From contig CAJWKQ010000001.1 in assembly GCA_913041895.1 (NCBI GenBank), forward strand, positions 1 through 49,547: 49,547 nt of DNA, written 5' to 3'. This document shows, in pieces, positions 18,227 through 39,258 of the stretch. The notes under the pieces were generated by a model. It had not been told where the DNA came from. It saw nothing but the letters and a program-made list of their open reading frames with translations, and searched no databases. A program made the position numbers and the translations under genes. Numbering within the stretch: position 1 is the first letter of the stretch; the number at the start of each line of letters is the position of its first letter. The stretch comes from an uncultured Verrucomicrobiales bacterium (GTDB taxonomy: Bacteria > Verrucomicrobiota > Verrucomicrobiia > Limisphaerales > UBA1100).

Positions 18227-19837
18227 CTATTTCTTTTCATTGGCCCCACCCAAGGTAACACTGATTTTGTATTTGCTTTGGAGATGGGCATGAGCGCGGC
18301 TTGCCTGACTAGTCTTGGGATAAAGCTTACAGGTTTGCTGGAACCATTTAATGGCATTCTCACGTGCGCCAGATTGCTCATATGTTTCTGCTATCTGTTT
18401 AGTAGCTTCTGGAGCTGAACTCTTATCCGCTCGCGCCTGATGATATAAGACCAACGCCTCCTTATATTGCTTTAAACGGCGATGGCATGAAGCCATTGCA
18501 AAATATACACTGGGATACCTATCAGACTGCCGATAACTCTGAATGGCCTCTTTTAGGCGTCCGCTCCGTTCATAGCAATCAGCTATCCCCCAATACCAGT
18601 CACCAAATTTCCCCGCTTCCACAGTAAGTAGTATTTGGTAAGCAGCAATCGCTTTATCCCATTGTCCAGCCTTTCGCCAGACTCCAACAATCGACTGTTG
18701 CCATTGACCTTCTTTATCTTTGTCCATTCCAATGAGTTGATTATATATGTTAACCGATTCCTTCCACTTTTTTTCCTCGTACCACGAATTCGCGATTGCT
18801 GCCAATCCTGCTTCTCGGTTCTTATACTGACTGTAAATCCTCCGAGCTTCGTCGTAACGCTTTCGGCTTCGGTGCCAGGAAGCTTGTTTGCCCCGAAGCC
18901 CATCATCGACCCCAATCAACTTGCCTAAAGTCTCATAAGCCGCTAGCCCCTCATTATCCCGGCGAGCATTGCCGTGTATAGCGGCTATTGTATAGTAATA
19001 GTCACGAGTTAACGAAATGTTGGCATCTTTGGTGAAATCCTGTGGGATCTGTTCCAAGATATAGGAAATGAGTTCATCAGCCAATTTTGTGCCAGTTGGT
19101 GACTTTTCTTGACTACCCGTTAGGGAACTGATCGGACTCGAGGCGTATCGGTATAACTGACTGATCAAGCTTTTACCTTTATATGTCGTTGCAAATGCTT
19201 TGAATGCATTTTGAAAATCGCCCGCATAAAAATGGTGCTGACCGAGGTAAATAGAGGCATGGGTTGTCTGATAATTGTTTTCTTTTGTTCGTTTGGTTTT
19301 GTAAGTCAAATCTTCCCAAATTTTAACCCGCTTTACCGTATCTTTACGAATACGGTAAACCTCAGCTAACTCCCATTTAGATAACACGCTCGTTTGGTGT
19401 TTGGGATGGGTGGTAATCGCCTGAATATATGCCTTCTCGGCATTCTGCAGTTCTCCTGCAGATTGATAACTACGACCTATAAGGTATCCGGACAACATGG
19501 CCTCATGTGAATCAGGCCAATAATCGATAACCGACTGAAATCCATCCCTTATAGCCGTATAAACCCTTCGTTGTTTAACCAGACAGTGGCTCCACATCAA
19601 CTGAGCATACGGAGCGGCCAAGCTTCTTTCATACAAAGTAAGAAATTTCTCGTACTCAGAAGCCGCAATCTTGTATTCGCCCTTGACATAAAATTTCTCG
19701 GCAACTTTCAGCTGGAACCGCTCTACTTCCCGCATTTTTGCAAATGTCTCCACCGGAATTTGTTCCAGATAACCCAACTGTGCGTAAACCGAAAAAGAAC
19801 ATACCAGTACTACTAGAGCCGATAACCTTATCTTCAT
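18227..19837 (-). CDS. secreted TPR-repeat protein (last gene of the ExbBD-linked operon)
   Basis: 536-aa ORF with the signal peptide MKIRLSALVVLVCSFSVYA. TPR-like helical repeats run throughout (..Y..A...Y..). Its ATG overlaps the stop of the upstream gene (ATGA, 19834-19837). Confidence 0.8.
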   Translation of the reverse strand: MKIRLSALVVLVCSFSVYAQLGYLEQIPVETFAKMREVERFQLKVAEKFYVKGEYKIAASEYEKFLTLYERSLAAPYAQLMWSHCLVKQRRVYTAIRDGFQSVIDYWPDSHEAMLSGYLIGRSYQSAGELQNAEKAYIQAITTHPKHQTSVLSKWELAEVYRIRKDTVKRVKIWEDLTYKTKRTKENNYQTTHASIYLGQHHFYAGDFQNAFKAFATTYKGKSLISQLYRYASSPISSLTGSQEKSPTGTKLADELISYILEQIPQDFTKDANISLTRDYYYTIAAIHGNARRDNEGLAAYETLGKLIGVDDGLRGKQASWHRSRKRYDEARRIYSQYKNREAGLAAIANSWYEEKKWKESVNIYNQLIGMDKDKEGQWQQSIVGVWRKAGQWDKAIAAYQILLTVEAGKFGDWYWGIADCYERSGRLKEAIQSYRQSDRYPSVYFAMASCHRRLKQYKEALVLYHQARADKSSAPEATKQIAETYEQSGARENAIKWFQQTCKLYPKTSQASRAHAHLQSKYKISVTLGGANEKK

Positions 19838-21510
19838 TTTTTATCTTCCTTTTTTCGAGATTGAAGCCATTTGCTGTATTCTGCATGAGCGTAGAGAATG
19901 ACATTCCCGCCCAGTCTATAACAAGCCTCATAAATTTGACCCGGCACACCTGCATGACCATCGGCCCATGCATCCCCAATATCACCGGGATGATAATAAG
20001 CAACCATGCGACTTTCAACCACCCAGCCATAAGCAACTCTTCCACCGTGCGGAGCAACAATCGGCAGAAATGGCATCCCATTGTGCACCGGATGATCCAA
20101 CGGAACCTTGATCGGCTCCACCCCTGGCAAAACCTGCCGCATCAAACTAAAAAACTGGCTGTGCCAATTGGAACTACCGCCATTATCTGCAAAAAGCATA
20201 CCGTGCTTATCAGTAAGATATTCACGCAGAACCTCCTTATCCTTGGATGAAATACTTCCCAAGGATTTTTGACCCGTCATGTATACTAGGGGGGGGCTTT
20301 TGCCGATTGGAAAATTTTTCAACTGGTTGATCGTGCGTACCTCCGGTTTGGGGGCAGTTTCGTGTCCTGTGTTAGCTGAATACCATAGGAGCATATTTAA
20401 GTCAGAGTGAAGATCCAAATCCTGATCCCAGTCACCTCCAGCGTACTTGAGACGGATAAACCGCACCTTCCCTCGCTTGGTTCCGCCGGCAAACCCAGCT
20501 CCTTTCCCTTCGCCGTGGCCCGGCTTATAGACATGCTTAGTCAGCTCCAATAGCTGGAGTTTAATTTTCTCTATAGGGGGAGGATTAAACAAAATAGCAC
20601 TGTAAGGGTTTATTACATACTTCTTTTGGATAACTTTTTTTATCTTCACTATCTTTTGCTTCAGCATCTCTTCACCACCACCAGCTGGCAGTTCATAAAC
20701 CTCCCGGCATCCACTCAAGCTAAGAATCAACATCACCATACAAACAAATATAATCGTGTAACTGAAAATGGCATTAAACGATTGTTTCAGCTTTTGCCTA
20801 CTCTTACCATAATACCACGCATCCTGATCAAACGGGTCCCAAGGCTTTATCGCCGGAATAGCCACTGATTGATTCATGGCCTCCAATGGCCCCACCTGAC
20901 CCAGCATCTTTTGTTTACCAGCATAACGCTGTCGTTGCAGTTTCCGAGAACGTCGCTCAACCCCCCACACCACCCATAAAAGCCCACTAATAAAGGCCAA
21001 ACACATACCTCCCTGTGCACACGCAATACGCACCTTTACCCACCCTAAATAATTAGCCCCAAATACCAATCCCTGCCAAATCGGGTAAATACTAATTGTC
21101 AATGCCAACCAATACGTCCAAACAGGCCAATCTCTTTGTTGTTGTTCGACCCTAAAGGTAAAACACACTACCAAGGCCACCGTCGAGCTAGTCGAAAAGA
21201 AAATCAAGAGACCCTGTTCATTTAGATCACTGGCAAATGCCCATTGAATCCAAAGGCCAACCCAAGCGATCCCAAAAGTAACTAAAAATACACCAAGGTA
21301 GATCACAAGACCGGAATTCAAATCTGTTCCGCTAATTTTGTTTCGCAATTTACTCCGCCATAAAACCTCCGTAAGAATTATCCCAAAAAAACCCATCACA
21401 CCTACCCAAAAAGGCCAATCTCGAATAAGGACAGCCTCCACAATTAAGCCGACCCAACAGAACCCCATGAAGAGCGCCCACAAGACCGGAATTTGACGCC
21501 ACTGGCCCAT
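19834..21510 (-). CDS. polytopic membrane protein with a C-terminal DUF4159 domain
   Basis: 558-aa ORF. About 6 hydrophobic helices lie in residues 1-190, and one more (FSYTIIFVCMVMLILSL) follows. Then comes VRFIRLKYAGGDWDQD ... PLVYMTGQKSL..S.KDKEVLREYL..HGMLFADNGG, which matches the DUF4159 pattern as I remember it. Its ATG shares one nucleotide with the upstream TAA stop (21510). Confidence 0.7.
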   Translation of the reverse strand: MGQWRQIPVLWALFMGFCWVGLIVEAVLIRDWPFWVGVMGFFGIILTEVLWRSKLRNKISGTDLNSGLVIYLGVFLVTFGIAWVGLWIQWAFASDLNEQGLLIFFSTSSTVALVVCFTFRVEQQQRDWPVWTYWLALTISIYPIWQGLVFGANYLGWVKVRIACAQGGMCLAFISGLLWVVWGVERRSRKLQRQRYAGKQKMLGQVGPLEAMNQSVAIPAIKPWDPFDQDAWYYGKSRQKLKQSFNAIFSYTIIFVCMVMLILSLSGCREVYELPAGGGEEMLKQKIVKIKKVIQKKYVINPYSAILFNPPPIEKIKLQLLELTKHVYKPGHGEGKGAGFAGGTKRGKVRFIRLKYAGGDWDQDLDLHSDLNMLLWYSANTGHETAPKPEVRTINQLKNFPIGKSPPLVYMTGQKSLGSISSKDKEVLREYLTDKHGMLFADNGGSSNWHSQFFSLMRQVLPGVEPIKVPLDHPVHNGMPFLPIVAPHGGRVAYGWVVESRMVAYYHPGDIGDAWADGHAGVPGQIYEACYRLGGNVILYAHAEYSKWLQSRKKEDKK

Positions 21511-22196
21511 TAATCAATTTTTAACTCACCCAGAGGATCATCGTTATTTTCAAATGGATTTACCTCTACAGGCTTACCCGTTTTTTCTGTATTTACCCCC
21601 AAGACATCGGGAGGATTTACAGCTGGCACTGTTGGAGTCTTGTCAGAAGGATTAACGTTGGCTTCTTTACCATTCATATCGGACTCCAATGTCTTGCTAA
21701 TGGATTCCAGCTTATTCAACATTTTTTTCTGAGCTTCAACGGCCTTCACTTCGGCCCCTTTTTTAACAATACCATATGTGTAGGGTGCAACTGTTAGAAC
21801 TACGAGGAGCAAAAAAATGATACCCGAGGACACTAAGGTACTTAAAACCAATGAACTCTGCGCAACCGCCCCAAGCATTTCACGTGGTGTTTTACCACGC
21901 ATTTCTCGCATAAATGTGCGCAACTCATCAACAGTGACAGAGCTATTTTGCTTAACGTTCTTTAAATCGCGAGAAATACTAGCCATCGATTGCAGCCCTG
22001 ATCCGGCGCTTTCTGGATCAAGGGATACTGCATCGGGAAGTTTTGCAAACAATTCAACGGTGCTCCATTTCTCATCACCTTCACGCAGAGCAGGTGTATC
22101 GGGCTGGATTTGACCTGCCTTTAATAATCCCCTCAACTCACTGGAGGTCAACGGTCCGCGCTGCTCTCCATCAATCACTACGAATATATTGTTCAT
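21510..22196 (-). CDS. GYF-domain (GYF_2/DUF4339-like) single-pass membrane protein in the TonB position
   Basis: 228-aa ORF. The N-terminus IFVVIDGEQRGPLTSSELRGLLKAGQIQPDTPALREGDEKWSTVELF is GYF_2-like. One TM helix spans about residues 112-139. The ~85-aa C-terminal tail has a Pro-containing stretch (KTPTVPAVNPPDV) but no recognisable TonB C-terminal domain. Its ATG overlaps the ExbD stop (ATGA, 22193-22196). Confidence 0.65.
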   Translation of the reverse strand: MNNIFVVIDGEQRGPLTSSELRGLLKAGQIQPDTPALREGDEKWSTVELFAKLPDAVSLDPESAGSGLQSMASISRDLKNVKQNSSVTVDELRTFMREMRGKTPREMLGAVAQSSLVLSTLVSSGIIFLLLVVLTVAPYTYGIVKKGAEVKAVEAQKKMLNKLESISKTLESDMNGKEANVNPSDKTPTVPAVNPPDVLGVNTEKTGKPVEVNPFENNDDPLGELKID

Positions 22197-22600
22197 CTCT
22201 GTTTATATTCCTCCAATATGTGGTGCAACTCTCCTCCTGCTTCGCTGATGGCCTCAATGACGGGTTCAAAATATACAGCTGTCACTTCGTGATGCACCTT
22301 CAGCAACACAGTCCGCCTGCCTGCAACGTTCTCGCCTAAAATAACCTTTAACTCTTCAGATAAAGTAGAAATGGGAATTTCCCGACCATTCAAGTGCGTC
22401 ACGTTGTATTTATCAATCACTACACTCGCGTTCATAGTGGCAGGCCTCACCAATTCAACCCCTTCGGCAGGCTTCCATTGCAAGTGACTATCATCACGTG
22501 CACGCGCCAGAATTACGAAGAAAATTAGTAATAAAAAAGCTATATCCCCCATTGCCATTGCGGGCACCGAAGCATTCATCTGTCTGCGTTTGACAATCAT
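22193..22600 (-). CDS. exbD: biopolymer transport protein ExbD/TolR (paralogue 2)
   Basis: 135-aa ORF. The TM helix carries the conserved Asp (MGDIAFLLLIFFVIL). The periplasmic domain resembles ExbD. There is an ATGA overlap with the upstream exbD. Confidence 0.85.
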   Translation of the reverse strand: MIVKRRQMNASVPAMAMGDIAFLLLIFFVILARARDDSHLQWKPAEGVELVRPATMNASVVIDKYNVTHLNGREIPISTLSEELKVILGENVAGRRTVLLKVHHEVTAVYFEPVIEAISEAGGELHHILEEYKQR

Positions 22601-23019
22601 TGGACCTGTACCGTTTGTTCTTCCTCAAGTTGCAATGTGATCACCCCTCCGGCATCTTCAATAATACCTGTAATATCCATCCAATGACTGTAAGGAACTT
22701 CCTTACGACTTTTTACTGCTACAATCTTGTCTTCTTCGCGTGCTTTATCTGCCAACTTAAGGATAATCGTTTTAACAAAGGTTTCCTTTGGAAGAGGGTT
22801 TCCATTCATTATCACTGCATCCCGAGTTAGCTCTACTTCTATATTCTGGCTTTGCTTGTCTTTTTGTGGCTCCGGTTCACTACGAGGCAGAGTCTGGGCC
22901 CTGCCTTTATCAGGCTCCACCGAAGCGCAAACCAAAAAAAACACAATGAGAATAAAGGCAATATCACTAGTCGCACTAGCTGGCGGCTCAACCAATAATT
23001 TTGTCCGTTTCAGTTTCAA
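22597..23019 (-). CDS. exbD: biopolymer transport protein ExbD/TolR (paralogue 1)
   Basis: 140-aa ORF. The TM helix carries the conserved Asp (TSDIAFILIVFFLV). The TTG start overlaps the ExbB TGA stop (cTTGAaa at 23016-23019). No in-frame ATG lies near the N-terminus. Confidence 0.82.
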   Translation of the reverse strand: MKLKRTKLLVEPPASATSDIAFILIVFFLVCASVEPDKGRAQTLPRSEPEPQKDKQSQNIEVELTRDAVIMNGNPLPKETFVKTIILKLADKAREEDKIVAVKSRKEVPYSHWMDITGIIEDAGGVITLQLEEEQTVQVQ

Positions 23020-23876
23020 GATTCAGGTTTATCTTCTGAATTCAATGTTAATTGCAGAGTAACCGCCTCCATCAATTCTGCAGCGCTTTCCTCTACCTCC
23101 AGCACAAAATTATTTATCACACTAGAAAAATAATTAAACGCCATAAAGGCCGGGATCCCCACCATGAGGCCGAAACACGTCGTTAAAAGAGCCACTTCAA
23201 TCCCTGCGGCAGCTGCCTGAATAATATTGCCTCCACCTGTCTTATCCATTTCCACAATATTATGAAACGCTACAATCATTCCCTGAACAGTGCCGAGAAA
23301 CCCAAGCATCGGCGCAACACTCGACACGATGGCCAATACTGGTAAATGACGCTCTAATGCAGCTACGATGTGAACCCCATAGCTTTCCATGCTCTTAACC
23401 ACCTGTTCTTCCAATCGTGCCGGATCATAATTAAGCCGACTCAAAACCAAATACTTTCGTAACCCATTGGCCAAAATGGCAGCAACCGGCCCGCGCTCCC
23501 TATCACACCGCGCCAAGGCATCTTCAATACGGTCGTTAGTCAGGTCTTCTAAAACAGCCTGACGCAAGGCCTCATTATCAGTATCCAACATCTTGAGGCT
23601 GCGCCATCTTTCAATAATTACAGCCAAAGCCAAGATAGCCATAATTAAAATGGGCCACATAAAAATCCCACCATCAATCAGCAAACCAATGGCCCCTGAA
23701 TCAAAAAATTCTGCAACTGCAGAAGGCTCAGAAGCCGCCTCTAGAGCCTCCTCATTTAAAGCTTCAGTGTTCTGATCCGGATTTGCTTCTGAAGGACCGT
23801 CATTGGTTCCCGATGAATTAGTGGATGCCGCATTTACCTCTGAGATATTAGTCACTTGAGCAAAAAACGGTAACAT
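23016..23876 (-). CDS. exbB: MotA/TolQ/ExbB proton-channel protein
   Basis: 286-aa ORF. A ~55-aa acidic, low-complexity N-terminal extension precedes three TM segments. The signature APMLGFLGTVQGMIVAF is present. Confidence 0.88.
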   Translation of the reverse strand: MLPFFAQVTNISEVNAASTNSSGTNDGPSEANPDQNTEALNEEALEAASEPSAVAEFFDSGAIGLLIDGGIFMWPILIMAILALAVIIERWRSLKMLDTDNEALRQAVLEDLTNDRIEDALARCDRERGPVAAILANGLRKYLVLSRLNYDPARLEEQVVKSMESYGVHIVAALERHLPVLAIVSSVAPMLGFLGTVQGMIVAFHNIVEMDKTGGGNIIQAAAAGIEVALLTTCFGLMVGIPAFMAFNYFSSVINNFVLEVEESAAELMEAVTLQLTLNSEDKPES

Positions 23877-23923: not shown

Positions 23924-26900
23924 TCAATTATCATCGTCTATGGAATTAGCCTCACTCTCAAATTGGGCCAACATTTCAGGTAAAGCCAAACGACCTCTTG
24001 CATATTTGGCAGCCTCGCTTTCAGGAAAGTCCCACCGACAGCGATTATACCTACGAAAAGCAAATGAAACATTGTTAGCCCCTCTGAAACTTTCCCCAGC
24101 CCAAAAGAGAGACTGAGCAGTCAGTCCGTCATCCGGAAACTTCTTGGTAAACAAATCGAAAACCACTCCTGCCTCGGCAAACTTTTCAGCCTTGTAATGG
24201 CATTGGCCCCACCGGAAACACATTTTTGGAGCAAATTCATGATCCGCAAATCGATCCATAAATTTTTCAGCAACTTTTGCTGCCACCGCATAATTCTCAC
24301 GTTTGTAGAAATACTCATTTATTCGTATCATTACATTGGGAATCAAGGGGCTCTTTGGATAGGTTGCAGCTAAAGTGACGTACTCCTCTAAAGCACGATC
24401 AAAGTCATTAGCCTCTTCATAACACTGGGCCAGCTTATACTGTGCATCAGCTGCTAGGGTATGATTCGGATATTGTCTCACGATTAATGCATAGCTGTTA
24501 GCTGCCGCATTCCAGTCCTGCAATTCTTGGGAAAACTGTCCGCTAAGATAAGCAATTCGAGGCAAGTATTTTGGGTCTGGATAATCAACCATGATCTCTT
24601 TGAGAATACGGCGCCCCGCCTTCAAAGCCTTTTGGCTCTCATCTTTTCTCTCCAGTTTAAGGTTATTTTTAAACAACTCAAAATAGCTTTCAGCGATATG
24701 AAATTGCGTTTGGACGGCCAGCTGCTGATTGCCAAATATTTTGCTAAATGCCGAAACAATACCGTCCGTTCCTATAGCAACAGGCAGTTCAATTGTATGA
24801 TCACCAGACGTCTCCACATCCCTCGCGGACTCATCCGAGTACTCAGCAGTAATTTTATCACCAAAGAAACATTCAATCTCCTTATCAATCTCACTAAAAT
24901 TGGCCGGTGTTGGCTTTTCCCGAGCTTTGAGCTCAAATGAGCCGGTAAATATCCCGCTGTGACTTAAGGTCTCATTGAGTTTCACTGATTCCTTTTCTCC
25001 ACTTTCGCTTTGAATAACGATGCTTGAAAAATCCCGCTCATCAGAAATGTCCAAATCTGGATCTGCAACCATCACAAAAAGCTTTTCTCCAACATGCAAT
25101 ATTTCAACTTTTTCATCATAACCCTCATTGGTAACAGATAGACTCCCATTTGTTTTTAATACAGCCTGATCAGATAAATCCAGCTCCTCTCCTCCTGGGC
25201 GCACCTTATCTTGATAGGATGCATTCAAAATCGATTTACCATTTACATTTAGCACAGTATCTAACAAATCATCTCCATTCTGTTCCTCTTCTTCTTCACC
25301 AGCAGGACGCACTCGACCAATCAACCCATTGCCACTACCCAAGCCGCGCGGCAGTTTTACGGGACTCCCTTCTCCTCCCAGTTGCATTTTAACCTGCCCC
25401 ACAAACCTTCCCATTCGTAATGCAGGGTTTGCCTGACCTTCATCAGTTCCTGAAAAATCTCCAAACTGCGTAGAAAGTGTACAGATAACTTCAACTGCAT
25501 TAGTCGTTCCAGCATTAATTAAAACCTTAACCTTACTTAAACTATCCTTTGCAGCATCTGGATCAATGACTTCAACAGTCAATGGAACAAAATAATCGAC
25601 ACCAACAGGACCTTCCTGTCCTTCCATTCGACGAAGATAGACCGGCTGAGGTAAACCCTCTGAACCCGCTGGCGGCTGTGTGCGGCTCGTGCCAATGATG
25701 CGCACCAGTCCTTCAGTAGGTTCATTGGCAAAAACCACTCCTTCGCGAACCACCGAATGCCCTGGAAAAGTGTTTTGCAAATCTGAATATCGGCAAAAAA
25801 TACTGTCACCTGGCTTGATTCGAAGTTTGTCAGTCTCTTCTAAAGTTGAGGTCTCCACTTCGACACGAAAAATCCCGGAATATTCCTCAGTCTCCGTAGC
25901 CTCCATATTCTTCCATTTGTTCCCGTTTAGCCAAATTTCCACAGGCACAGTATCGCGCTGATCAGTTTGATCCATGTCATAATCAACCACCTCAAAGGTA
26001 ATCCGATCTCCCGCATCCACTCTAAGCAACTCCTTACGAGTCTGAGCAACGCCACCTCCTGAATTTCTAGCGAAATCAAACCCTATAGGCACCACCCGGG
26101 CATCATTGTAAGTTGCCTGCAGGTTTTGAGTGAGCAACCGGCTGCCTCCCTTGGTCGCCACTGCAGTTTCATCAGTGTAACTAGCAAGAACCACGTCTCC
26201 CCCAGCAATTTCCAGCGTCTTATTCTCTGCAAGCTTACTGACGTCCACCTCGGTAGGAATGAAAACACTATTCTTATTTGCCACCTCAATATGATTAACC
26301 GCAACCGAATCTCCAAGATATTCATCTATCTGAAAACGTGCATAACGCAACTGGATAGGCTTAAAAAAGAACTCCCACTCTCGGTCACGCTGTATCACTC
26401 CTGCTCCTGAAGCCGGGCGCAACTCGATGCCGGACAAATCCATAAGGACAGCTCCCACAATTTCCAATGGTTTAATGGTAAGGATTTGTGATCCCGCCGC
26501 ATCAACCTGCACCAATCCCACCCGTTGCCAAGCAAAACGGTGAGGGTCACCGGTTTTTTGCACCGTTGCCTCTATCATCTGATCTCCGAATTCCAAACGG
26601 AACAGTGAGCCTCCCTCGATATGCGCTGAATTCACCCAAACCTCATAAGCACCGGGTTGTTGGGCATTAAAGGCCCATTTGAGCCAATCACCAGGCTTTT
26701 GCCAATGATGAACCCTTTTAACCTTATTTAGTTCACCAGCAGCAAACTCCTCCGTTTCCTTTTGCAACTCCACCTTATCTAAATCCATCACCAATGTTGT
26801 AGCTTTGGAACCATTTCTCTCAGGCTCATTACCAAAATATTTCTTGGCTGCCTCAAGGTCGAAATCAGCCTTATTAAAAGGTTTCAATTGGGGCTGTGCA

Positions 26901-29900
26901 CTACTTGAATTGGCCCGCGCACGAGTAGCCGAAAGACCAGATGACCCTTTTTTTGCCGCGGCAAAAATCGTAAGGTCATGGATGCCTGCAGTTAGCCATA
27001 CATCCACTTGTTTGATTTCACTGGATGGAGCTAGCTGAACCTTTCCATCCACAGCCACAGCCACTAAATCACCCTTTACTCCGATACGCACCGCCCCTTC
27101 ACGCGGCTGGATCAACTTTCCGGCCCATATTGCCGCAACCGGTTTGACACCATTTTCATCCCCTTCTTCCGGGTTCCAGGATAACTCTAAAACCTCATTT
27201 GTAGTCGCCTGTGTTGTACGCGCCAATCGGGCAACTTGCGCCCAAGTCGTGTATGAGGTATGGTCCCCCTTGTAGATCATTTGTTTCATCACTCCGGACT
27301 TTTCCAAAACAGTCTGCGCGTCTTGAATTCGAGGCTGAGCTGCCAAGGTAAACCAAAAGACCCCATCATGACTGCCTAACAACCGTCCTCGTACTGGAGC
27401 ATGGTCTCCCGCATTAGGCGTATTTATTCTTATTCTCGAAATCTCATGAAGTTGCTTCATGTCAACGGTTAAAGCCTTTGGTGTTTGACCATCTGGCTCA
27501 CTCTGCCAGTAGGATTCTCGACTATGATCTATTGCCATCAACGGATTGTGGTCAATGGCACTATCGGAAGCGGAAGCACCCGCTGGAAGTTCAGCAGTCG
27601 GAATAGCTGCACGAAACTCCCCGGTATGCGGCCCGGTTTCCTTTAATTCCACCTGCACCTGATCACCACTATCCGCCCTTAATGTCACCGTTAAGAGATC
27701 TTCTTGATCTCCAAAATCCCGATCCTTATCGCGAATACGTAGAAAAATCCGGTTACCTGGCTTCACCTCATTTGCAGGCCTGCCTTGAGAAACGCGCCTG
27801 TCCTCCTCAGCTTCCTCTTTTTGTTCCCTTTCGAGCTGTTTAGTCAGAGTTTCCTCTTCTTTATCAACGATCTCACTACTGGCCACATCAAACTCCCCAT
27901 CTGCAGCCACACGAATCTCGACGTCACTTAAGGGAACAGTTCTAAACTGCTTTTTAAAATCATCTGGATAATCACTCAAAATGACATCCTTTCCAGTTAT
28001 CTGTAAAACACCATCCTCAGGAGCTACAGAACCCAATCCCGTATCTATCTCTCCTCTAAATAGCCCTTTACCTGCGCCAGAACTACTCCGCAACAAGACC
28101 TTCTCTCTATCACCCCCTGGCTTTGTCGTAACAATAACCGGAATGGTATTTTGCCCGCGGCTGACACCTAAATCTCGATCGTGAACTACAATCGATAAAG
28201 CATTTCCGGGAATATGAAGCCTTTTACTGCTTTGGCCCAATCGACCAACGGTACGTAGTAAATTTAATTGCTGAAGATACCGTTGTTCGAGCCCATATAT
28301 TTCCGACAAGCTAAAAAGAGTGCGATTGGCCAGCTCCACATCGGGCACACGTTCTAGAATATGTTGAAACTTTTCACGAGCTTCATCGCGTTGATCCTGA
28401 CGAAACGCCAATAAGCCTGTTAAAAACTCTGCTCGAATGGAAATTTGCTGATCAGGATTTTCCTCGAGCACCTTAAAAGCCTCTGCGGCTTTATCATAAA
28501 TCTTTTGCGCCATGAAAGACTCTCCAATACCAAACTTGGCCTCAATGGCATGAGGCGTCCCACTATAGCGGTTAGTTACCGTAGAATACTCTACTCGAGC
28601 CACATCAAATCGCTGCCCTTTGAAGTAACTCTTGGCCAAGAGAAGCTGTAAGCGCGCCTTTGCATCTTCACTTTGTTGTTTACTCTCGGGCTTTTCAGGA
28701 TCGGTAAACTTGATGAGCCAACCCCTCAAAATATCTTCCACAGCTGTCAAGCGCTCCTCATCCCCGCCAGTCATAAGATAGTTGCAAACGAACTCAATCA
28801 GGTCGGGCGGAAGGTCATTGCGGTGTTTTTTAAATAACTCCACATTTGACTGATATAATTCCAAAGCCTTCTCACGGTCCCCCAAACGGAGGTACAAGGC
28901 TGCCTGCAACAGAGGCGCCATCGGACTATCTTCGTCAATTGTCAAACCTACCGCACCCATTCGGGAATGTGCCCTTAAGACAGCACTACGACCTTCGCTC
29001 TTGCTTTCCTTTGATACACTAGATACATGCGCCAGTGCACCGGTCAATAATGTCGCACTCTCCATATACCTTTCCTGTTCAAACGCCTTTTGTGCATAAC
29101 TACGGAAAGTATTCCAGCGATTCTGGTCGTTATGAGTATACTTGGTAGCCCTAAAGAGGCGCTGCAAACGGGCTACAGGCAACTCCTTATCAGCACCGCC
29201 TCCCAATAAATGGTCACAAGCCGCCCATGCAGAATAATCAGAACCTCTTAAATCCTGAATAGCCTGATAGACTGAAAGCTTTTGACCATCATCCAGCTTT
29301 TTGAAATTCTTGTAGGCTGGATTATCCCCTTCTGTATAAGTCTTATTGTTTAGAGCGAACTCCCTCCAAGTCCCAGCAAATCCCCGCCAGTCCTCATTTA
29401 CAAAAGGTAAATCCGAAGCCGTCTGCTGGATCTGAGTGATAGCTCTGGAAAAACCAGCTGCATCCCCTTGTAATCGTAAAATATCAGTAGCCTTGTGAGC
29501 CGCCACTCGAAGAGTTAACTCCGGCCAGCGATTCTCTACATGTTCGCGCCATGTTGCAGGAGGATTTCCTCCGTTAACCAAAAAGCGTTCAGCACAGGTT
29601 CGCTCCTCTGACCGCCCTTGTGTAGGCATCTGGGAAATTCGCTTCCACCAGTCCAAAGCCTGTTTTTTTTGATTCAATTTCCACAATACATCGCCGGTGT
29701 AATCTGCATAAATTGAGCTCAAATCTCCCTTGATAGCCCATTGATATATCTGGTTAGCAAGATTGGCATCCTGAAGACGTTCGGCCACCTGCATTAAGTC
29801 TCGTTGAAAAGAATAATTAACCCGACCTTTGGCTGGCGGCATGCGCAAAGCTTGTTGCACAATCTTCTTGGCCTCACTTTTATCTTCATCACTGCCACCC

Positions 29901-31873
29901 ATGTATAATGATAAAAACCCGTGAGCCGCATCATGATTCTTGGGATGTTTTTGCCATAGCGTTCGAGCTATAGCGCGAGCAGTCACAGGATCCTTCTTCT
30001 TGACATAGGCAACCAGCGCATGCCTTTGAGTTCCAACTAAACGCAACTGATTCGCGGAACTCAAACTATTAAACTGCTTCAATGCTTCTGCACGAAGCGG
30101 AACGGCCTTAGCTGGATTATCTTGTGGGCGGGGATATTTCAGCAACGCCTGAACCAATGACTCTCTATTCTGAGCGGCCAACTGATCGCCCACAAACTTG
30201 GCTTTAGCACGTTGATCCTTGTTGCTCTTCATCGAAGAAACCCAGTTGCTGACATAATCCCGATAATAGGTGGTCGTCAGATAATCGCGCCGCTCTTTAA
30301 GCAGCATTGCAACATCCTTACGAAACTGATCACCATCTGGCTGACCAGTAAGTAAATCATTAATGAGGGTCTGCTGATTAGAGCTATACAAATGAGTTTC
30401 TCTGGAAACTTCACGCGCATGAGCAAGCGCTTTGGCCTCATCCTTCACGCGTTCACGGTAGAGCGTACGCGACAAGGCATAGCGCAAAGCCAGAATAGCA
30501 CCATAATTCTTAGATGCCTTAGCCTTACCGACAGCTGTATTTAAAGCACGATCGGAATCGGTCACTTGTTTGCGAAATTTAGCCTCTGCATCACGAGCTG
30601 AAGCTTGCGCCTTTTGCAACTCTTGTTGTCGCTGCTGAACCAGTTTAGTCGCCTCAACCAAAGCTGTCTGGGCAGCTTTCCTAGCCTCTGGACTACCTGC
30701 TTTATTGAAAGTATCACGCTTGGATTTTTCATCAGTCTTCGCATTTTCGAGATTCTTTTGGGCTTCAGCTTGAGCGCTCACAGCCTTGCCTCGGGCAGCA
30801 TTAGCCTCATCCACCATCCAAAGAACGTAATAGTAGGCCATATTCCCGGAATTGGCTGCGTTAGCCAAAGCTGGCTGAATCGATCCGGCAGCTAAAGTGG
30901 GGTTATTTTCACGTGCATGAGCATGGCCTACATACAAAAGAACCTCCCACCTTCGTCGATCATTTGGGAATTTAGCCGCCATACCTCGTGCTTCACTCTC
31001 GATTTGTTGAGGCTTCAAGCCTGCGTTATGCATGTATGATATTTGTGCTGCATAAAGAGCGGAATCGTCCTTAAAGCTGCGCGCCTTTCGCATACTTTCC
31101 ACTGCATTGGCCCATTGACTTTGTGAGGCGTAACTTTGCGCCATTAAATGATGCAGTTCGAACTGCTGGGTGCGGTTTAATGGCAAACGTTTTTGAATTA
31201 GTTTTTGCGCAGCTTGATTAGACTCTGCCCAACGCGAAATAGCCCTGTATTCGGTAATTGCCCTAAACCCCGCCCGTACGGTGTAGGGACTGGCTGGAAG
31301 CTTTTCCATCATGCTCCCACACAGCTCAGCCGAACGAATTCTCAAACGAGTATTCCCTTCCTGCCCGTAAAGCTCAGAAGCCCTTTCGGCGGCCTTACGG
31401 TTACCGACCCCAGGTTTGTGTTCCCACAAAAGCCGCAACACATCTGCCGCTTGGGATCGTTTACGATCACGCTCCAATCCATCAGAGACACGCAAAGCAA
31501 CATCAAGGGCTTCAGTTGAATCCGGATAACGAGTAAGATACTGCCGGCCTATGGTTATAAGCTCATCTCGTCGCCCCATGATCTCCAGCCCATCGACCAA
31601 TTTCAACATTACCTGACGATGCTGGGCGTGACGGCTTTGAGCCTTCACAAAACGCTCAGATACTCGCACCAAACCAAACACACGCCCCTCATTATAATAC
31701 AAGTCCACGAGCTCAATCATGACCTTCGCCCCCTCTACAGAGGTGTCGAGCGACTTGTTCAATTGAGCTTCAAGAGCCGTAGCCTTTTTATCGATAGCAC
31801 TCGGCTCATTCTTGTCCACAGCCATTGAAAGCAATGGCATGAGTAATAGAAAAATAGTTATTGGTTTTATCAT
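23924..31873 (-). CDS. secreted giant (2649 aa) TPR / beta-module / TPR protein
   Basis: A single uninterrupted ORF with the signal peptide MIKPITIFLLLMPLLSMA. An all-helical TPR-like region of about 1210 aa spans 31873 to ~28230. A beta-rich region of about 1160 aa (~28225-24740) contains discoidin (F5/8 type C)-like, PA14-like and CBM-like stretches plus repeated acidic modules. The C-terminal ~270 aa are YbgF/CpoB-like TPRs (LIVRQYPNHTLAADAQYKLAQCY, LAATYPKSPL, FTKKFPDD). Confidence 0.85.
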   Translation of the reverse strand: MIKPITIFLLLMPLLSMAVDKNEPSAIDKKATALEAQLNKSLDTSVEGAKVMIELVDLYYNEGRVFGLVRVSERFVKAQSRHAQHRQVMLKLVDGLEIMGRRDELITIGRQYLTRYPDSTEALDVALRVSDGLERDRKRSQAADVLRLLWEHKPGVGNRKAAERASELYGQEGNTRLRIRSAELCGSMMEKLPASPYTVRAGFRAITEYRAISRWAESNQAAQKLIQKRLPLNRTQQFELHHLMAQSYASQSQWANAVESMRKARSFKDDSALYAAQISYMHNAGLKPQQIESEARGMAAKFPNDRRRWEVLLYVGHAHARENNPTLAAGSIQPALANAANSGNMAYYYVLWMVDEANAARGKAVSAQAEAQKNLENAKTDEKSKRDTFNKAGSPEARKAAQTALVEATKLVQQRQQELQKAQASARDAEAKFRKQVTDSDRALNTAVGKAKASKNYGAILALRYALSRTLYRERVKDEAKALAHAREVSRETHLYSSNQQTLINDLLTGQPDGDQFRKDVAMLLKERRDYLTTTYYRDYVSNWVSSMKSNKDQRAKAKFVGDQLAAQNRESLVQALLKYPRPQDNPAKAVPLRAEALKQFNSLSSANQLRLVGTQRHALVAYVKKKDPVTARAIARTLWQKHPKNHDAAHGFLSLYMGGSDEDKSEAKKIVQQALRMPPAKGRVNYSFQRDLMQVAERLQDANLANQIYQWAIKGDLSSIYADYTGDVLWKLNQKKQALDWWKRISQMPTQGRSEERTCAERFLVNGGNPPATWREHVENRWPELTLRVAAHKATDILRLQGDAAGFSRAITQIQQTASDLPFVNEDWRGFAGTWREFALNNKTYTEGDNPAYKNFKKLDDGQKLSVYQAIQDLRGSDYSAWAACDHLLGGGADKELPVARLQRLFRATKYTHNDQNRWNTFRSYAQKAFEQERYMESATLLTGALAHVSSVSKESKSEGRSAVLRAHSRMGAVGLTIDEDSPMAPLLQAALYLRLGDREKALELYQSNVELFKKHRNDLPPDLIEFVCNYLMTGGDEERLTAVEDILRGWLIKFTDPEKPESKQQSEDAKARLQLLLAKSYFKGQRFDVARVEYSTVTNRYSGTPHAIEAKFGIGESFMAQKIYDKAAEAFKVLEENPDQQISIRAEFLTGLLAFRQDQRDEAREKFQHILERVPDVELANRTLFSLSEIYGLEQRYLQQLNLLRTVGRLGQSSKRLHIPGNALSIVVHDRDLGVSRGQNTIPVIVTTKPGGDREKVLLRSSSGAGKGLFRGEIDTGLGSVAPEDGVLQITGKDVILSDYPDDFKKQFRTVPLSDVEIRVAADGEFDVASSEIVDKEEETLTKQLEREQKEEAEEDRRVSQGRPANEVKPGNRIFLRIRDKDRDFGDQEDLLTVTLRADSGDQVQVELKETGPHTGEFRAAIPTAELPAGASASDSAIDHNPLMAIDHSRESYWQSEPDGQTPKALTVDMKQLHEISRIRINTPNAGDHAPVRGRLLGSHDGVFWFTLAAQPRIQDAQTVLEKSGVMKQMIYKGDHTSYTTWAQVARLARTTQATTNEVLELSWNPEEGDENGVKPVAAIWAGKLIQPREGAVRIGVKGDLVAVAVDGKVQLAPSSEIKQVDVWLTAGIHDLTIFAAAKKGSSGLSATRARANSSSAQPQLKPFNKADFDLEAAKKYFGNEPERNGSKATTLVMDLDKVELQKETEEFAAGELNKVKRVHHWQKPGDWLKWAFNAQQPGAYEVWVNSAHIEGGSLFRLEFGDQMIEATVQKTGDPHRFAWQRVGLVQVDAAGSQILTIKPLEIVGAVLMDLSGIELRPASGAGVIQRDREWEFFFKPIQLRYARFQIDEYLGDSVAVNHIEVANKNSVFIPTEVDVSKLAENKTLEIAGGDVVLASYTDETAVATKGGSRLLTQNLQATYNDARVVPIGFDFARNSGGGVAQTRKELLRVDAGDRITFEVVDYDMDQTDQRDTVPVEIWLNGNKWKNMEATETEEYSGIFRVEVETSTLEETDKLRIKPGDSIFCRYSDLQNTFPGHSVVREGVVFANEPTEGLVRIIGTSRTQPPAGSEGLPQPVYLRRMEGQEGPVGVDYFVPLTVEVIDPDAAKDSLSKVKVLINAGTTNAVEVICTLSTQFGDFSGTDEGQANPALRMGRFVGQVKMQLGGEGSPVKLPRGLGSGNGLIGRVRPAGEEEEEQNGDDLLDTVLNVNGKSILNASYQDKVRPGGEELDLSDQAVLKTNGSLSVTNEGYDEKVEILHVGEKLFVMVADPDLDISDERDFSSIVIQSESGEKESVKLNETLSHSGIFTGSFELKAREKPTPANFSEIDKEIECFFGDKITAEYSDESARDVETSGDHTIELPVAIGTDGIVSAFSKIFGNQQLAVQTQFHIAESYFELFKNNLKLERKDESQKALKAGRRILKEIMVDYPDPKYLPRIAYLSGQFSQELQDWNAAANSYALIVRQYPNHTLAADAQYKLAQCYEEANDFDRALEEYVTLAATYPKSPLIPNVMIRINEYFYKRENYAVAAKVAEKFMDRFADHEFAPKMCFRWGQCHYKAEKFAEAGVVFDLFTKKFPDDGLTAQSLFWAGESFRGANNVSFAFRRYNRCRWDFPESEAAKYARGRLALPEMLAQFESEANSIDDDN

Positions 31874-31891: not shown

Positions 31892-34267
31892 TTAAAATCC
31901 GGATTTGGCTAAAGCTTGGGAAATGCGCTTGGCTTCTGGTGCAAGTTGACTCTCAGGAAATTCATCGATCAATTGATCGAAGCGCTTACGTGCCTCAGCA
32001 CGACGGTCTAGCCGAAACAAACACCGACCGTAGTTAAAGAGAATTACATCTAGAAAATTTGCATCTGGATGGTCAGAAAGAACTTTTTCAAAAACATCGA
32101 CTGCCCGCCCATAGTCTTTCTTTTGATAATAGAAGCTGGCCATTTTTGCCACCGCATCACCCACTCTTCCGCTTTCGGGATGTTGGTCAAATACCATCTT
32201 GTAAGCCTGAAAGGCACGTTCATACATTTGCTCAGCATTTCCTCGCGCAGCCTTGGCCATATCTTCATAACATTCCCCAATTCCATACTGCCCTTCCCCG
32301 CGCAGTTGACTTTTAGTCAAACGGGTAAGATTCGTATATAAGGCAATCGCCCGGGCAAAGTCGCCTGACTTCTGTGCAACACGAGCCTGTTGCAAAATGG
32401 CCTCGTCCAAATAGATGCTTTCAGGAAATTCACGCTGCAACCTAAGGCTCATTGCGGCAGCTAGATTGAGTCGATCCATGGCGAAATAAATCCGCCATAA
32501 TTGGACATACGTTTCCTCGAGTAACCCGCCGCCAATCTTGCGCGCTTCAGCAGCAATTTCCTCGCAAACGCCCAATGCCTCCTCGTATTTCCGCTGAGCC
32601 TTATCATCCAGTCCAAAATCCCGATATTGTGTTCCTATTTGAGTCAAAGCACTGGCAGTTTTTAATTTGGTTTTTAATGCCAATTCCGCATCTCCAATTT
32701 CAGTGCGAGTCACTCGGACCCCCCCTAGATTACCTTCAACACATTTGGCTGCTGCAAACAGATCACGGGGACCAGCAGAAATATTAAGAGCATCCTGATA
32801 GCTCACCCGAATCAAATCACCAGATTGAGCCTGCAGCTTGGCATCATCATTCACAACGTTGGACTCAGACTCTACGGGTATTGTGCCACGAAAAAGTCCC
32901 GTATGAATCGTCCCATCCTTCTGCTCCTGATTAATCTCTTCAACCAAATCATCACCTAATCCTGGAGTCTTGGCTGTCTGCGCAGGAGGCTCGGCAGGAG
33001 TATCTTCAGGCTCCCTCTGTCCCGAATCTACAGGTTTAGTAATAACTTTTTCCTCAGGTTTCTTTTCGGACTCCTTCAAGATCATTTCCACTGTATCCAC
33101 GACCTTGAACGGGTCGACTTGCACTTGTTCCTCAACTGGCTCAACTCCCGGAACAACCGGTGCAACAGGTTTCTCCACTGGAGCTGGAGACACAATTGCT
33201 CCTTCTGCAATGAGTTTTGCCTTTTCTTCTTCTATTTCTACAGGAGTTTTTTGTCGGAGCACCTGCACTTTGACTTTTATAACGTCTGATTTATCACTGA
33301 CATCACGATCAGCATCGCTGACTTGAATGTTTGCTTCCTTGCCCAATACGACCCCCTGAAGTGCTTCAGAAAATGCTCCGTCCATTACCTGAACCAATGC
33401 GTTCCCGACCACAGTCACTGCTTTTTTACGATCCACATTAAAAGCACGGTCTGCTGTATGAGAGTCCACGTAATCAACCTGAACCTTAGCCGTGCCAGTC
33501 ACTTCAATGATCCCATTACCTTTTCTGGCCTTGCCTAGTCTTGTGGGGATAGAACCTAAAACCACTCGAACATTACGACCCACCGGAAGACATTCAACGG
33601 TTTCCTCATCTCCCTGAGAAGTTCGCACCTTAATGGGCACTGTTTCATTTTTTTCAAGAATCGCCAAATCAGCATCCTCGATTTTTACGAAGAAACGTTT
33701 CCCTGCCTCGAGTTTTTCGGCATTCTGATCCTTCTGCCCCACAGCAGTCCCCACTTTTTCCAAGGCTGATATCGACCGGCCATAATGACCCTGTTTGAAA
33801 TGGCCAAGACCAATATAGTAATAAGCCTCATTAACCTGTTCAGCCACGGGAAATTCTTCAATCACCTTACGCATCACCTTAAAGCATTGGCCATAGTGTC
33901 TGCCTTCAAAAAGACATACGCCCATCTTCAATGTCGCTAAAGCGCGTTGTTCGGTGTCTGTGTTTTCCTCTCCAGCAACTGTTTCAAAATGAGCGCGCGC
34001 CTTGTCATAGGCATTGCCCTTGGTTAAATGATGTTCACCAAGCTTCAGGTGCGCTTGATACCTAACCTTACTGCGCGGATAACGCTCAACCACCGATTGC
34101 CAAATCTCCAAGGCTTTCTCCTGCTCCCCCGCATCATAACGCAAATCACCTGCTTGAAGGAGCTTACGTGCTGCTCGATCCTCAACAATGGAACCTCTAA
34201 CCGGAGCTCCAGCCTGAAGACTCAATGAAAGACAAAAGGCAAAGAGAATTAAAACCCTTGAAATCAT
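31892..34267 (-). CDS. secreted TPR / beta-module / Pro-rich linker / TPR protein (first gene of the operon)
   Basis: The ORF track starts at a TTG (34372). The ATG at 34267 gives the signal peptide MISRVLILFAFCLSLSLQA. YbgF/CpoB-like TPRs occur at both ends (VVERYPRSKVRYQAHLKLG; VFDQHPESGRVGDA; LSDHPDANF; LIDEFPESQLAPEA). The centre holds beta modules and a Pro/Glu/Lys/Val-rich linker. The stop lies 18 nt before the start of the giant gene. Confidence 0.8.
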   Translation of the reverse strand: MISRVLILFAFCLSLSLQAGAPVRGSIVEDRAARKLLQAGDLRYDAGEQEKALEIWQSVVERYPRSKVRYQAHLKLGEHHLTKGNAYDKARAHFETVAGEENTDTEQRALATLKMGVCLFEGRHYGQCFKVMRKVIEEFPVAEQVNEAYYYIGLGHFKQGHYGRSISALEKVGTAVGQKDQNAEKLEAGKRFFVKIEDADLAILEKNETVPIKVRTSQGDEETVECLPVGRNVRVVLGSIPTRLGKARKGNGIIEVTGTAKVQVDYVDSHTADRAFNVDRKKAVTVVGNALVQVMDGAFSEALQGVVLGKEANIQVSDADRDVSDKSDVIKVKVQVLRQKTPVEIEEEKAKLIAEGAIVSPAPVEKPVAPVVPGVEPVEEQVQVDPFKVVDTVEMILKESEKKPEEKVITKPVDSGQREPEDTPAEPPAQTAKTPGLGDDLVEEINQEQKDGTIHTGLFRGTIPVESESNVVNDDAKLQAQSGDLIRVSYQDALNISAGPRDLFAAAKCVEGNLGGVRVTRTEIGDAELALKTKLKTASALTQIGTQYRDFGLDDKAQRKYEEALGVCEEIAAEARKIGGGLLEETYVQLWRIYFAMDRLNLAAAMSLRLQREFPESIYLDEAILQQARVAQKSGDFARAIALYTNLTRLTKSQLRGEGQYGIGECYEDMAKAARGNAEQMYERAFQAYKMVFDQHPESGRVGDAVAKMASFYYQKKDYGRAVDVFEKVLSDHPDANFLDVILFNYGRCLFRLDRRAEARKRFDQLIDEFPESQLAPEAKRISQALAKSGF

Positions 34268-34422
34268 GGCTACTTGGACGTGAAAAAATAGTCTGTTTAT
34301 CACTTTATTTACGAATAGGCGGCACCGTTTTATATGCAAACCGGGTGCGGCATTAATTCTAGCCTCAGCCAAACCAAAGGCAACCTAAACCCCCCTACTT
34401 ATTGCTGAAATATATTGAAAAT

Positions 34423-35734: not shown

Positions 35735-35761
35735 ATATGTTCCGTTTCGTTTATTTAAATT

Positions 35762-39256: not shown

Positions 39257-39258
39257 TC

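Follow-up and report, generated by a model that had tools for sequence, protein, structure and literature searches.

ExbB/TolQ-type 5:2 motors energise outer-membrane processes through adaptors of the TonB, TolA or GltG type. What, then, is to be made of a motor cluster in which the gene that follows the motor subunits belongs to neither the TonB nor the TolA family? This is the situation with gene X, which encodes a protein of 228 amino acids (protein X, or simply X) in a 49,547-nucleotide stretch of DNA from an uncultured Verrucomicrobiales bacterium (contig CAJWKQ010000001.1), referred to here as the window. The reading that we favour, at a probability of roughly 0.55, is that X represents a small bitopic adaptor or tether associated with the motor of a Tol-like machine driven by the proton-motive force (PMF), conserved in the Verrucomicrobiota and Planctomycetota seen here.

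The closest described systems are of four kinds. In TonB and TolA the transmembrane (TM) helix carries the SHLS motif, S-x3-H-x6-L-x3-S, which contains an essential His and binds ExbB/TolQ, and the remainder of the protein includes a "motor box" beta-strand after the TM helix, a domain II spacer and, at the C-terminus, a domain that is globular (PMC12204202). Some species of the Planctomycetes-Verrucomicrobia-Chlamydiae (PVC) group are without a recognisable TonB and TolA (PMC12204202), and PVC clusters have been described with the order TPR - tolQ - tolR - tolR - vWA force transducer (Williams-Jones et al., Mol Biol Evol 2025, PMC12204202). In these transducers an SHLS TM helix with the conserved His is combined with a motor box and, at the C-terminus, with a vWA domain (PMC12204202).

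The third system is the Agl-Glt gliding and focal-adhesion machine of Myxococcus xanthus, where the cytosolic region of GltJ, consisting of a zinc ribbon (ZnR), a linker and a GYF domain, binds a proline-rich sequence of AglZ, and where a switch function has been proposed for such ZnR-linker-GYF modules (PMC11135422). The Agl-Glt model places a disordered stretch of GltG, on the periplasmic side, within a groove of GltD, a TPR protein, and it is only GltG, not the GYF-bearing GltJ, that is predicted to bind the motor (PMC11761067). The fourth kind comprises the bacterial GYF_2 membrane proteins: the commonest architecture among bacterial GYF proteins has GYF_2 at the N-terminus and a membrane module after it, and a role in transmembrane signalling has been proposed for it (PMC11135422).

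Gene X and the architecture of its product

Gene X lies at positions 21510..22196 (-); it is a real gene, and its product is a small protein that spans the membrane once. The start codon of gene X overlaps the stop of exbD2, the second of two ExbD paralogues, within the sequence ATGA, its stop codon (TAA) overlaps by 1 nt the ATG of a gene for a DUF4159 membrane protein within the sequence TAATG, and a GGAGGA Shine-Dalgarno motif is found 12 nt 5' of its start. Read from its N-terminus, and with all parts on the minus strand, the protein is composed of a GYF_2 domain (residues 5-49; 22050..22184 (-)), recognised by Pfam, AlphaFold2 (AF2) and Foldseek and probably cytoplasmic; a juxtamembrane motif (residues ~70-116; 21849..21989 (-)), delineated in alignments A1, A2 and A4; a single TM helix (residues ~112-139; 21780..21863 (-)), placed by hydropathy and column frequencies; a variable low-complexity tether that is predicted to be periplasmic (residues 140-195; 21612..21779 (-)); and a C-terminal peptide motif (residues 196-228; 21513..21611 (-)), defined by columns that are conserved across 150 family representatives. 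There is one hydrophobic segment in the protein, with a Kyte-Doolittle peak of 2.72 at residues 116-134, and there is no signal peptide.

The N-terminal domain gives a Pfam match to GYF_2 (PF14237) with an E-value of 1.5e-10 and 41.1 bits, above the gathering cut-off of 25.8, and in the AF2 model, which was built on 20 homologues, it adopts the GYF fold, with residues 1-51 folded at a pLDDT score (the predicted local distance difference test) of 82-88. The top match to this domain in the Protein Data Bank (PDB), as found with Foldseek, is 7z3c, the nuclear magnetic resonance structure of the GltJ GYF domain (E 7e-4, probability 1.00), followed by the GYF domains of GIGYF1/2, Smy2 and CD2BP2. 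Residues 74-99 are modelled as a helix, whilst the tail, which contains the strings KTPTVPAVNPPDV and KPVEVNPFENNDDP, has nothing folded beyond residue 174 and is disordered over residues 175-228. In all of this the original prediction, made from the letters of the DNA and their open reading frames, has held up in every particular: it had placed a gene for 228 amino acids on the ATGA overlap with exbD2, fitted its N-terminus to the GYF_2 pattern, given it one TM helix at residues ~112-139 and described a tail containing the two strings above and nothing like a TonB C-terminal domain, for which there is indeed no Pfam match at E<=1.

The orientation of X in the membrane is likely to be N-in, with the tether in the periplasm. 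The number of Lys and Arg residues in the flanks of the TM helix of this one protein is ambiguous (4 versus 5), and the mean net charge of the 15-residue flanks over 150 family members is +1.0 on the N-terminal side and +0.17 on the C-terminal side, a bias that would lend mild support to the N-in arrangement. This orientation is also favoured by the lack of a signal peptide and from the fact that the domains added to the N-terminus within the family, GYF and zinc ribbon, are cytosolic in GltJ.

A conserved core to which a GYF domain has been added

A direct search with X of 5.8 billion proteins returned 90 homologues from marine and freshwater metagenomes of the Verrucomicrobiales type, nearly all of them full-length (200-245 amino acids) and the few shorter ones probably partial calls. 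Most of these carry GYF_2, and yet in their alignment the GYF domain is not the best-conserved part of the protein. In a scan of GTDB genomes, Planctomycetaceae loci match only residues ~78-222 of X; in these the gene that follows exbD-exbD encodes a protein of 153 amino acids that has no GYF domain but shares with X its juxtamembrane motif, its TM helix and its C-terminal motif. A search from this shorter protein gave 35 relatives of 143-193 amino acids, likewise without GYF, that align with the core of the Verrucomicrobial X.

When a profile of the X core was searched against 1.84 billion representative sequences it recovered 506 clusters at 50% identity (E<=1e-3), 438 of them at E<=1e-10. 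The family-wide figures given here refer to the best 150 of these 506 representatives, and alignment A4 consists of the window X together with 149 representatives (median length 168 amino acids). The 150 range from 146 to 296 amino acids, most of them between 150 and 190 and all but one no longer than 248. The exception, P0220 (296 amino acids), was considered as an X with an extra C-terminal domain and set aside; it has the appearance of an ExbD-X fusion or of a read-through, and its extension is without a Pfam domain. The homologues are named only as "hypothetical protein" in their sources. The X family, which amounts to about 500 clusters at the level of 50% identity, is unannotated and has neither a Pfam nor an NCBIfam model.

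The best-conserved part of the family is the juxtamembrane motif, ...SATxxELRxFxxxMRGKSPxEMLGxVAxSxL, which in the alignment of the 90 direct homologues reads ...SATxxELRxFMREMRGKSPxEMLGAxAQSxL. Within it E91, F95, G101, G109 and S114 are at least 90% conserved, L116 is invariant and P104 is kept in 134 of the 150. Two positions within the TM helix, T135 and P138, are also conserved. Beyond the membrane the tether varies from 45 to 100 residues (median ~60) and is composed of 24% Ala and 11% Pro, with Thr, Lys, Glu and Asp, before the sequence becomes conserved again in the C-terminal motif. The motif takes the form VLGVxxEKTGKPxEVNPFENxxDPLGxxKID in Verrucomicrobial proteins and MGIxETKxADPKxNPxEKxLDSLLD in those of the Planctomycetota, with G200, N213, P214, D220 and L222 at least 90% conserved, and always lies 22-39 residues from the C-terminus.

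The GYF domain, in comparison, is patchily distributed. Five of the 150 representatives have a Pfam GYF_2 match, or seven when divergent ones are counted by eye; in one further member, P0209, a zinc ribbon replaces the GYF domain, and the others have a short N-terminus only. P0209 (224 amino acids; locus L028, 870-1544) begins with a CxxC...CxxC zinc ribbon, and its ExbD-X-DUF4159 context is unchanged. The GYF-bearing proteins seen in the Verrucomicrobiota come from Verrucomicrobiales and Opitutae, and all the Planctomycetota orthologues seen are devoid of the domain. The GYF domain is on this showing an optional N-terminal addition, made in Verrucomicrobiota, to a separately conserved core. 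It can no longer be taken as the defining feature of the protein in this slot, as had at first been proposed: X follows the ExbD pair in all 27 loci compared, and the GYF domain is missing from the Planctomycetota proteins seen.

How close, then, is X to GltJ? The statement in the original prediction that GltJ has a cytoplasmic GYF domain is correct, for its ZnR-linker-GYF region is cytosolic (PMC11135422). Both proteins are bitopic and are linked to a TolQ-like channel and two different TolR-like subunits, both have a GYF domain, with that of GltJ (7z3c) the closest in structure to that of X, and GltJ has as its other N-terminal domain a zinc ribbon, such as is carried by the one exceptional family member. 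X further shares with GltJ and GltG a long segment that is disordered and periplasmic, and their respective systems include large periplasmic TPR proteins. However, the window X has neither the ZnR-linker switch nor a domain resembling the TonB C-terminal domain, so that the full-length GltJ layout (ZnR, linker, GYF, TM helix and TonB-like C-terminal domain) is not present. The GltJ equivalog NF033761 scores only 18.8 bits against X, with a cut-off of 450, and its model positions 150-202 correspond to the GYF region alone. Moreover, no Glt outer-membrane components lie near the X cluster and partners resembling AglZ or MglA were not seen in the window. The 2649-aa and 826-aa TPR proteins of the cluster show no similarity to GltD or GltE at E<=0.01, and the 536-aa TPR protein matches GltE at an E-value of only 0.01. 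Membership of the Agl-Glt system was therefore rejected, given that the GltJ model matches only the GYF domain and that there is no GltD/GltE similarity, and Agl-Glt is kept as an analogy. X resembles the bacterial GYF_2 membrane proteins at large in having GYF_2 at the N-terminus and a membrane segment after it, but differs from them in that its GYF domain is optional on a motor-linked core for which there is no Pfam or NCBIfam model.

A Tol-like cluster in two phyla

Gene X is one of a run of minus-strand genes whose order is TPR (up to 826 amino acids), giant TPR, ExbB/TolQ, ExbD1, ExbD2, X, DUF4159 and TPR (536 amino acids). Successive genes overlap all the way from exbB to the TPR gene downstream, with spacings of -4, -4, -4, -1 and -4 nt in turn. 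The channel subunit is an ExbB/TolQ-type protein of 286 amino acids (23016..23876 (-); Pfam MotA_ExbB, PF01618, E 3.4e-25), whose best NCBIfam match is tolQ, at 107.6 bits versus 66 for exbB. It is followed by two ExbD/TolR paralogues, the first of 140 amino acids (22597..23019 (-); Pfam ExbD, PF02472, E 4.2e-13; best NCBIfam match tolR) and the second of 135 amino acids (22193..22600 (-); PF02472, E 3.2e-9), both of which retain the TM Asp, D19. The neighbourhood hence contains what is expected of a 5:2 motor, a MotA_ExbB channel and ExbD/TolR subunits with the TM Asp.

Ahead of its first TM helix the ExbB protein has an acidic N-terminal extension of 70 residues (MLPFFAQVTNISEV...), in which no signal peptide is clear. 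At locus L019 the orthologue from Planctomycetaceae begins with the signal-like MSHLLLVFALLAQ, and either the start codon or the topology of the extension is uncertain.

The three TPR proteins all begin with signal peptides. The protein of 536 amino acids (18227..19837 (-)) has Pfam TPR repeats and CpoB/YbgF-like repeats that fall below the cut-off, whereas the giant of 2649 amino acids (23924..31873 (-)), which also has an F5/8 type C domain, and the protein of up to 826 amino acids (31892..34372 (-)) both end in a CpoB/YbgF-type TPR module. The likely start of the last of these is internal, at the signal peptide MISRVLILFA... Against tol_pal_ybgF (TIGR02795; cut-off 90.1 bits) the scores are 127.5 bits for the 2649-aa protein, 101.4 for the 826-aa protein and 65.6 for the 536-aa protein. 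The repeats qualify as CpoB/YbgF-type modules, yet the proteins are multi-domain giants and not orthologues of CpoB.

The 2649-aa protein, which is secreted or periplasmic, contains TPR arrays at both its N- and C-termini, the F5/8 type C (discoidin) domain and a DUF5077-like region. It is kept 5' of exbB in Verrucomicrobiota, in Phycisphaerae and in at least one Planctomycetaceae locus (L018).

Synteny was followed by tblastn of the window proteins against 27 related loci, which span Verrucomicrobiales, Pedosphaera-like metagenome-assembled genomes (MAGs), Opitutae, Planctomycetaceae, Phycisphaera and Rhodopirellula. The order ExbD1-ExbD2-X-DUF4159 is found in all 27, with the one proviso that at L015 the contig ends after X and DUF4159 is missing; ExbB lies 5' of the ExbD pair in 26, and flanking TPR genes are present in most loci with enough contig. 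The other conserved neighbours of X in these loci are the TPR and DUF4159 proteins only. X therefore has the same position throughout, as was anticipated in the proposal that it sits in the slot that TonB or TolA takes after exbB-exbD-exbD. Of the components X is the least conserved: at L019, for example, its core is 30% identical, against 49-61% for the other proteins.

That proposal had also treated the cluster as being of the Ton type, and on this point the evidence runs the other way. The neighbourhood is Tol-like rather than Ton-like, because ExbB and ExbD1 find their best matches in TolQ and TolR, because the TPR modules are of the CpoB type, and because neither a TonB_C domain nor a TonB-dependent receptor is encoded in the window. 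TolB and Pal are likewise not encoded in the window, and Pfam finds no member of the PD40, TolB_N or OmpA families in any cluster protein.

The DUF4159 protein

The gene downstream of X (19834..21510 (-)) encodes a membrane protein of 558 amino acids with a C-terminal DUF4159 domain (Pfam E 3.6e-25). From AF2 and alignment A3 its layout begins with some six TM helices of poor conservation, after which come a basic loop in the cytoplasm that has the conserved motif NPLDxDAWYYG, a last TM helix (residues 240-265) that ends in an invariant lipobox-like L-S-G-C268, a linker and the globular domain, of which the last two are predicted to be periplasmic. The linker (residues 278-339; 20494-20679 (-)) is highly conserved and is left unfolded by AF2 (pLDDT <50); its beta-prone sequence, VVKVQKVIKKKxVINPxSxIxFNPPPIEEIKLQL, makes it a candidate ExbD-binding "motor box" or docking segment. 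With Foldseek the DUF4159 domain matches Hoch_4089 best (4i66, E 5e-7) and class-I glutamine amidotransferases next, so that the fold is GATase1-like. Homologues share 45-60% identity across PVC phyla, and among the papers searched DUF4159 occurs only in one, on the Pfam database.

It is this protein that gives rise to the most serious of the alternative explanations, in which the DUF4159 protein is the TolA/TonB-like transducer and X is a regulatory or assembly subunit that couples or gates it by way of its GYF or zinc-ribbon input. The DUF4159 protein has the parts for such a role in its last TM helix, its conserved disordered linker and its globular domain of 200 residues, it is far better conserved than X (46-81% identity across loci versus 30-54% for the X core), and the two genes overlap by 1 nt. 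The Agl-Glt model, in which GltG and not GltJ is predicted to contact the motor, provides a precedent. Against this, the last TM helix of the DUF4159 protein is also without the SHLS His, the GATase1-like fold has no known role in the binding by strand addition, and X has its own conserved motif at its periplasmic terminus, which implies a periplasmic partner. On balance we consider this explanation unlikely.

Could the DUF4159 protein be one of the published vWA transducers? This was rejected, since both AF2 and Foldseek give it a GATase1-like fold (4i66) and not that of a vWA domain. The PVC vWA clusters do share with the X cluster the same upstream context and the presence of a non-TonB protein in the transducer position. 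However, X is without the SHLS His, without a recognisable motor box and without a vWA C-terminal domain, the SHLS His is missing from the TM helix of X and from the last TM helix of the DUF4159 protein alike, and the downstream globular protein is DUF4159 rather than vWA. As neither protein fits the vWA description, the X cluster represents a different solution within the same lineage, and apparently one that is undescribed.

A separate feature of the DUF4159 protein is the L-S-G-C sequence at residues 265-268 (20707-20718 (-)), of which G267 and C268 are kept without exception in all 25 homologues. A stretch rich in Lys and Arg precedes the last TM helix, and together the two resemble the signal peptide of a lipoprotein, in an internal position. 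P0363, a homologue of 337 amino acids, starts only about 48 residues before the Cys. The sequence could reflect internal lipidation or processing of a polytopic protein.

X in relation to TonB and TolA

The similarities between X and TonB/TolA are those of position and general design. Both are encoded directly after the motor genes, both are bitopic, with an N-in orientation that is probable for X, and in both the TM helix is followed by a disordered Ala/Pro-rich periplasmic spacer, so that the X tether qualifies as a domain II-like spacer. As in tol-pal operons, the X loci have CpoB/YbgF-type TPR proteins alongside. The differences begin on the cytoplasmic side, where X has a long conserved region (the juxtamembrane motif, with or without GYF) in place of a few residues, continue at the other end, where a terminal peptide motif of ~30 amino acids takes the place of the globular C-terminal domain, and extend to the cluster, which in contrast to Tol and Ton systems is without TolB, Pal or a TonB-dependent receptor. 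We know of no described TonB/TolA counterpart of the juxtamembrane motif.

None of the searches placed X in either family. Pfam gave no match at E<=1 to TonB_C (PF03544), TolA_C (PF06519) or TonB_2 (PF13103), an NCBIfam scan gave no TonB/TolA match at E<=1, none of the 150 representatives has a TonB_C or TolA Pfam match, and a profile search of PDB sequences found no TonB or TolA chain at E<=10. Membership of X in TonB/TolA was rejected on these grounds. The TM helix leads to the same end: at no position is His among the three commonest residues of the 150 representatives, and position 118 is occupied by Arg, Gln or Lys. The region after the TM helix is unconserved, and AF2 extends a low-confidence helix into it with no strand. 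The VLGV/MGI stretch of the C-terminal motif could form a strand, but it is situated at the far end of the tether.

Might X nevertheless be a true TonB or TolA that has diverged greatly, or been truncated, with loss of both domain III and the SHLS His? Its slot after exbB-exbD-exbD, its bitopic N-in architecture and a spacer rich in Ala, Pro, Lys and Glu like that of domain II are what such an origin would leave behind, all the more so as the composition of domain II is fluid in TolA and TonB (PMC12204202). The empty searches, even at permissive thresholds, and the lack of His among the commonest TM residues speak against it, and as the C-terminal domain is kept in none of the 150 representatives any such loss would have to be ancient and complete. 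This origin thus seems improbable. With neither the SHLS His nor a C-terminal domain X is not a member of the TonB/TolA family, but it may work like a TonB/TolA adaptor all the same. That X is an independent receptor-like signalling protein which merely adjoins the motor genes, as the proposed signalling role of most bacterial GYF proteins, with their N-terminal GYF and membrane module (PMC11135422), might suggest, is highly improbable given that the place of X, with exbD2 before it and the DUF4159 gene after it, is constant across the 27 loci from two phyla, that its start and stop overlap these two neighbours, and that most members of its family have no GYF domain.

A model for the machine

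In the adaptor reading of X, the machine would combine a channel of the TolQ/ExbB pentamer type with a heterologous pair of ExbD1 and ExbD2, with X and the DUF4159 protein, and with the periplasmic CpoB-like TPR proteins. X would insert with its N-terminus in the cytoplasm, and its juxtamembrane helix and TM helix would dock it to the ExbB/ExbD stator. From there the Ala/Pro-rich disordered tether, of 45-100 residues, would cross the periplasm, allowing the C-terminal peptide of 30 residues to dock onto a partner. X would in this way serve as domains I and II do in TolA/TonB, and a short linear motif would stand in for domain III, which is globular. In those Verrucomicrobiota that possess it, the GYF domain may be a handle for protein binding on the cytoplasmic side, through which the machine is localised or gated in the manner of GltJ and its GYF domain in Agl-Glt.

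The likeliest partner for the C-terminal peptide would be a CpoB-type TPR module. CpoB binds the extended domain II of TolA through its TPR repeats (PMC7391070), and together with the GltG segment in the groove of GltD this is what makes a TPR module the leading candidate. As the TPR proteins have signal peptides, any contact with X would be by way of its periplasmic tail and not its GYF domain. The DUF4159 domain and the periplasmic domain of ExbD are alternative docking partners.

A number of observations weigh against this reading. The SHLS His by which TonB and TolA attach to ExbB and TolQ is missing from the TM helix, which has no His, there is no recognisable conserved beta-strand "motor box" after it, and the cluster does not encode TolB or Pal. 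The AF2 confidence is low outside the GYF domain (mean pLDDT 61.9). The family-wide figures cover the best 150 of the 506 representatives, and the query profile that selected them is weighted to Planctomycetota sequences. The better conserved DUF4159 protein, with its TM helix, conserved linker and globular domain, could be the real transducer. Finally, the suggestion that a cytoplasmic GYF domain would couple X to a proline-rich cytoplasmic partner has been sustained only in part: the domain is probably cytoplasmic, but a scan of the cluster and of the whole window found no proline-rich or PPG-motif cytoplasmic ligand encoded there, the only PPGF in the window being inside a GFO/IDH/MocA oxidoreductase.

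A broader proposal, which we put forward tentatively and hold to be rather doubtful as it stands, is that the set TPR-TolQ-TolR1-TolR2-X-DUF4159-TPR, in which the first TPR protein is the CpoB-like giant, constitutes an envelope machine that is driven by the PMF, has not been described before and has to date been seen in PVC bacteria alone. In such a machine force or a conformational signal would be passed along a tether that has no C-terminal domain, the terminal peptide would plug into a TPR or DUF4159 partner, and GltJ-type modules (GYF and zinc ribbon) would have been recruited repeatedly at the cytoplasmic end.

Other genes in the window and at related loci

The wider window has the character of its lineage, in that it includes a PSCyt1-FGE-sulfatase protein (16666-18108) and a DUF1501 gene paired with a PSCyt2/PSD1 (DUF1549/DUF1553) gene (34472-37888 (-)), which are typical Planctomycetes-Verrucomicrobia gene families. 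Upstream of the cluster, with unrelated genes between, is a fusion of a response-regulator receiver domain with a SpoIIE/PP2C phosphatase (38111-39262 (-)). A predicted membrane protein of 614 amino acids (2003-3847 (+)) and a protein of 157 amino acids (3888-4361 (+)) have no Pfam match at E<=1e-5.

One related locus, in an Opitutae MAG (L025, 13841-22028), has a further Tol-like cluster, separated from the X cluster by about 2 kb and on the other strand. Its genes are those of a TPR protein (1048 amino acids), an ExbB (257 amino acids), a single ExbD (138 amino acids), a protein with PD40 TolB-like repeats (1268 amino acids) and a probable lipoprotein (143 amino acids).

Biological significance

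In a gene set conserved among PVC bacteria, an unannotated family whose members end in a peptide motif fills the adaptor slot, and this family has independently gained a GYF domain or a zinc ribbon, modules that are proposed to turn the gliding machine of Myxococcus on and off. A specialist in Tol or Ton systems would have predicted neither a conserved adaptor with a peptide motif at its end nor that modules of the GltJ type would be recruited repeatedly. If the broader proposal is true, a tether that inserts its peptide into a partner would reverse the arrangement of TonB and TolA, where it is the globular domain that binds a peptide of the partner. It would also mean that an envelope motor of the Verrucomicrobia is under spatial or temporal control from the cytoplasm, in a manner comparable to bacterial focal adhesions. 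X gives a handle on the envelope biology of the abundant marine Verrucomicrobiales.

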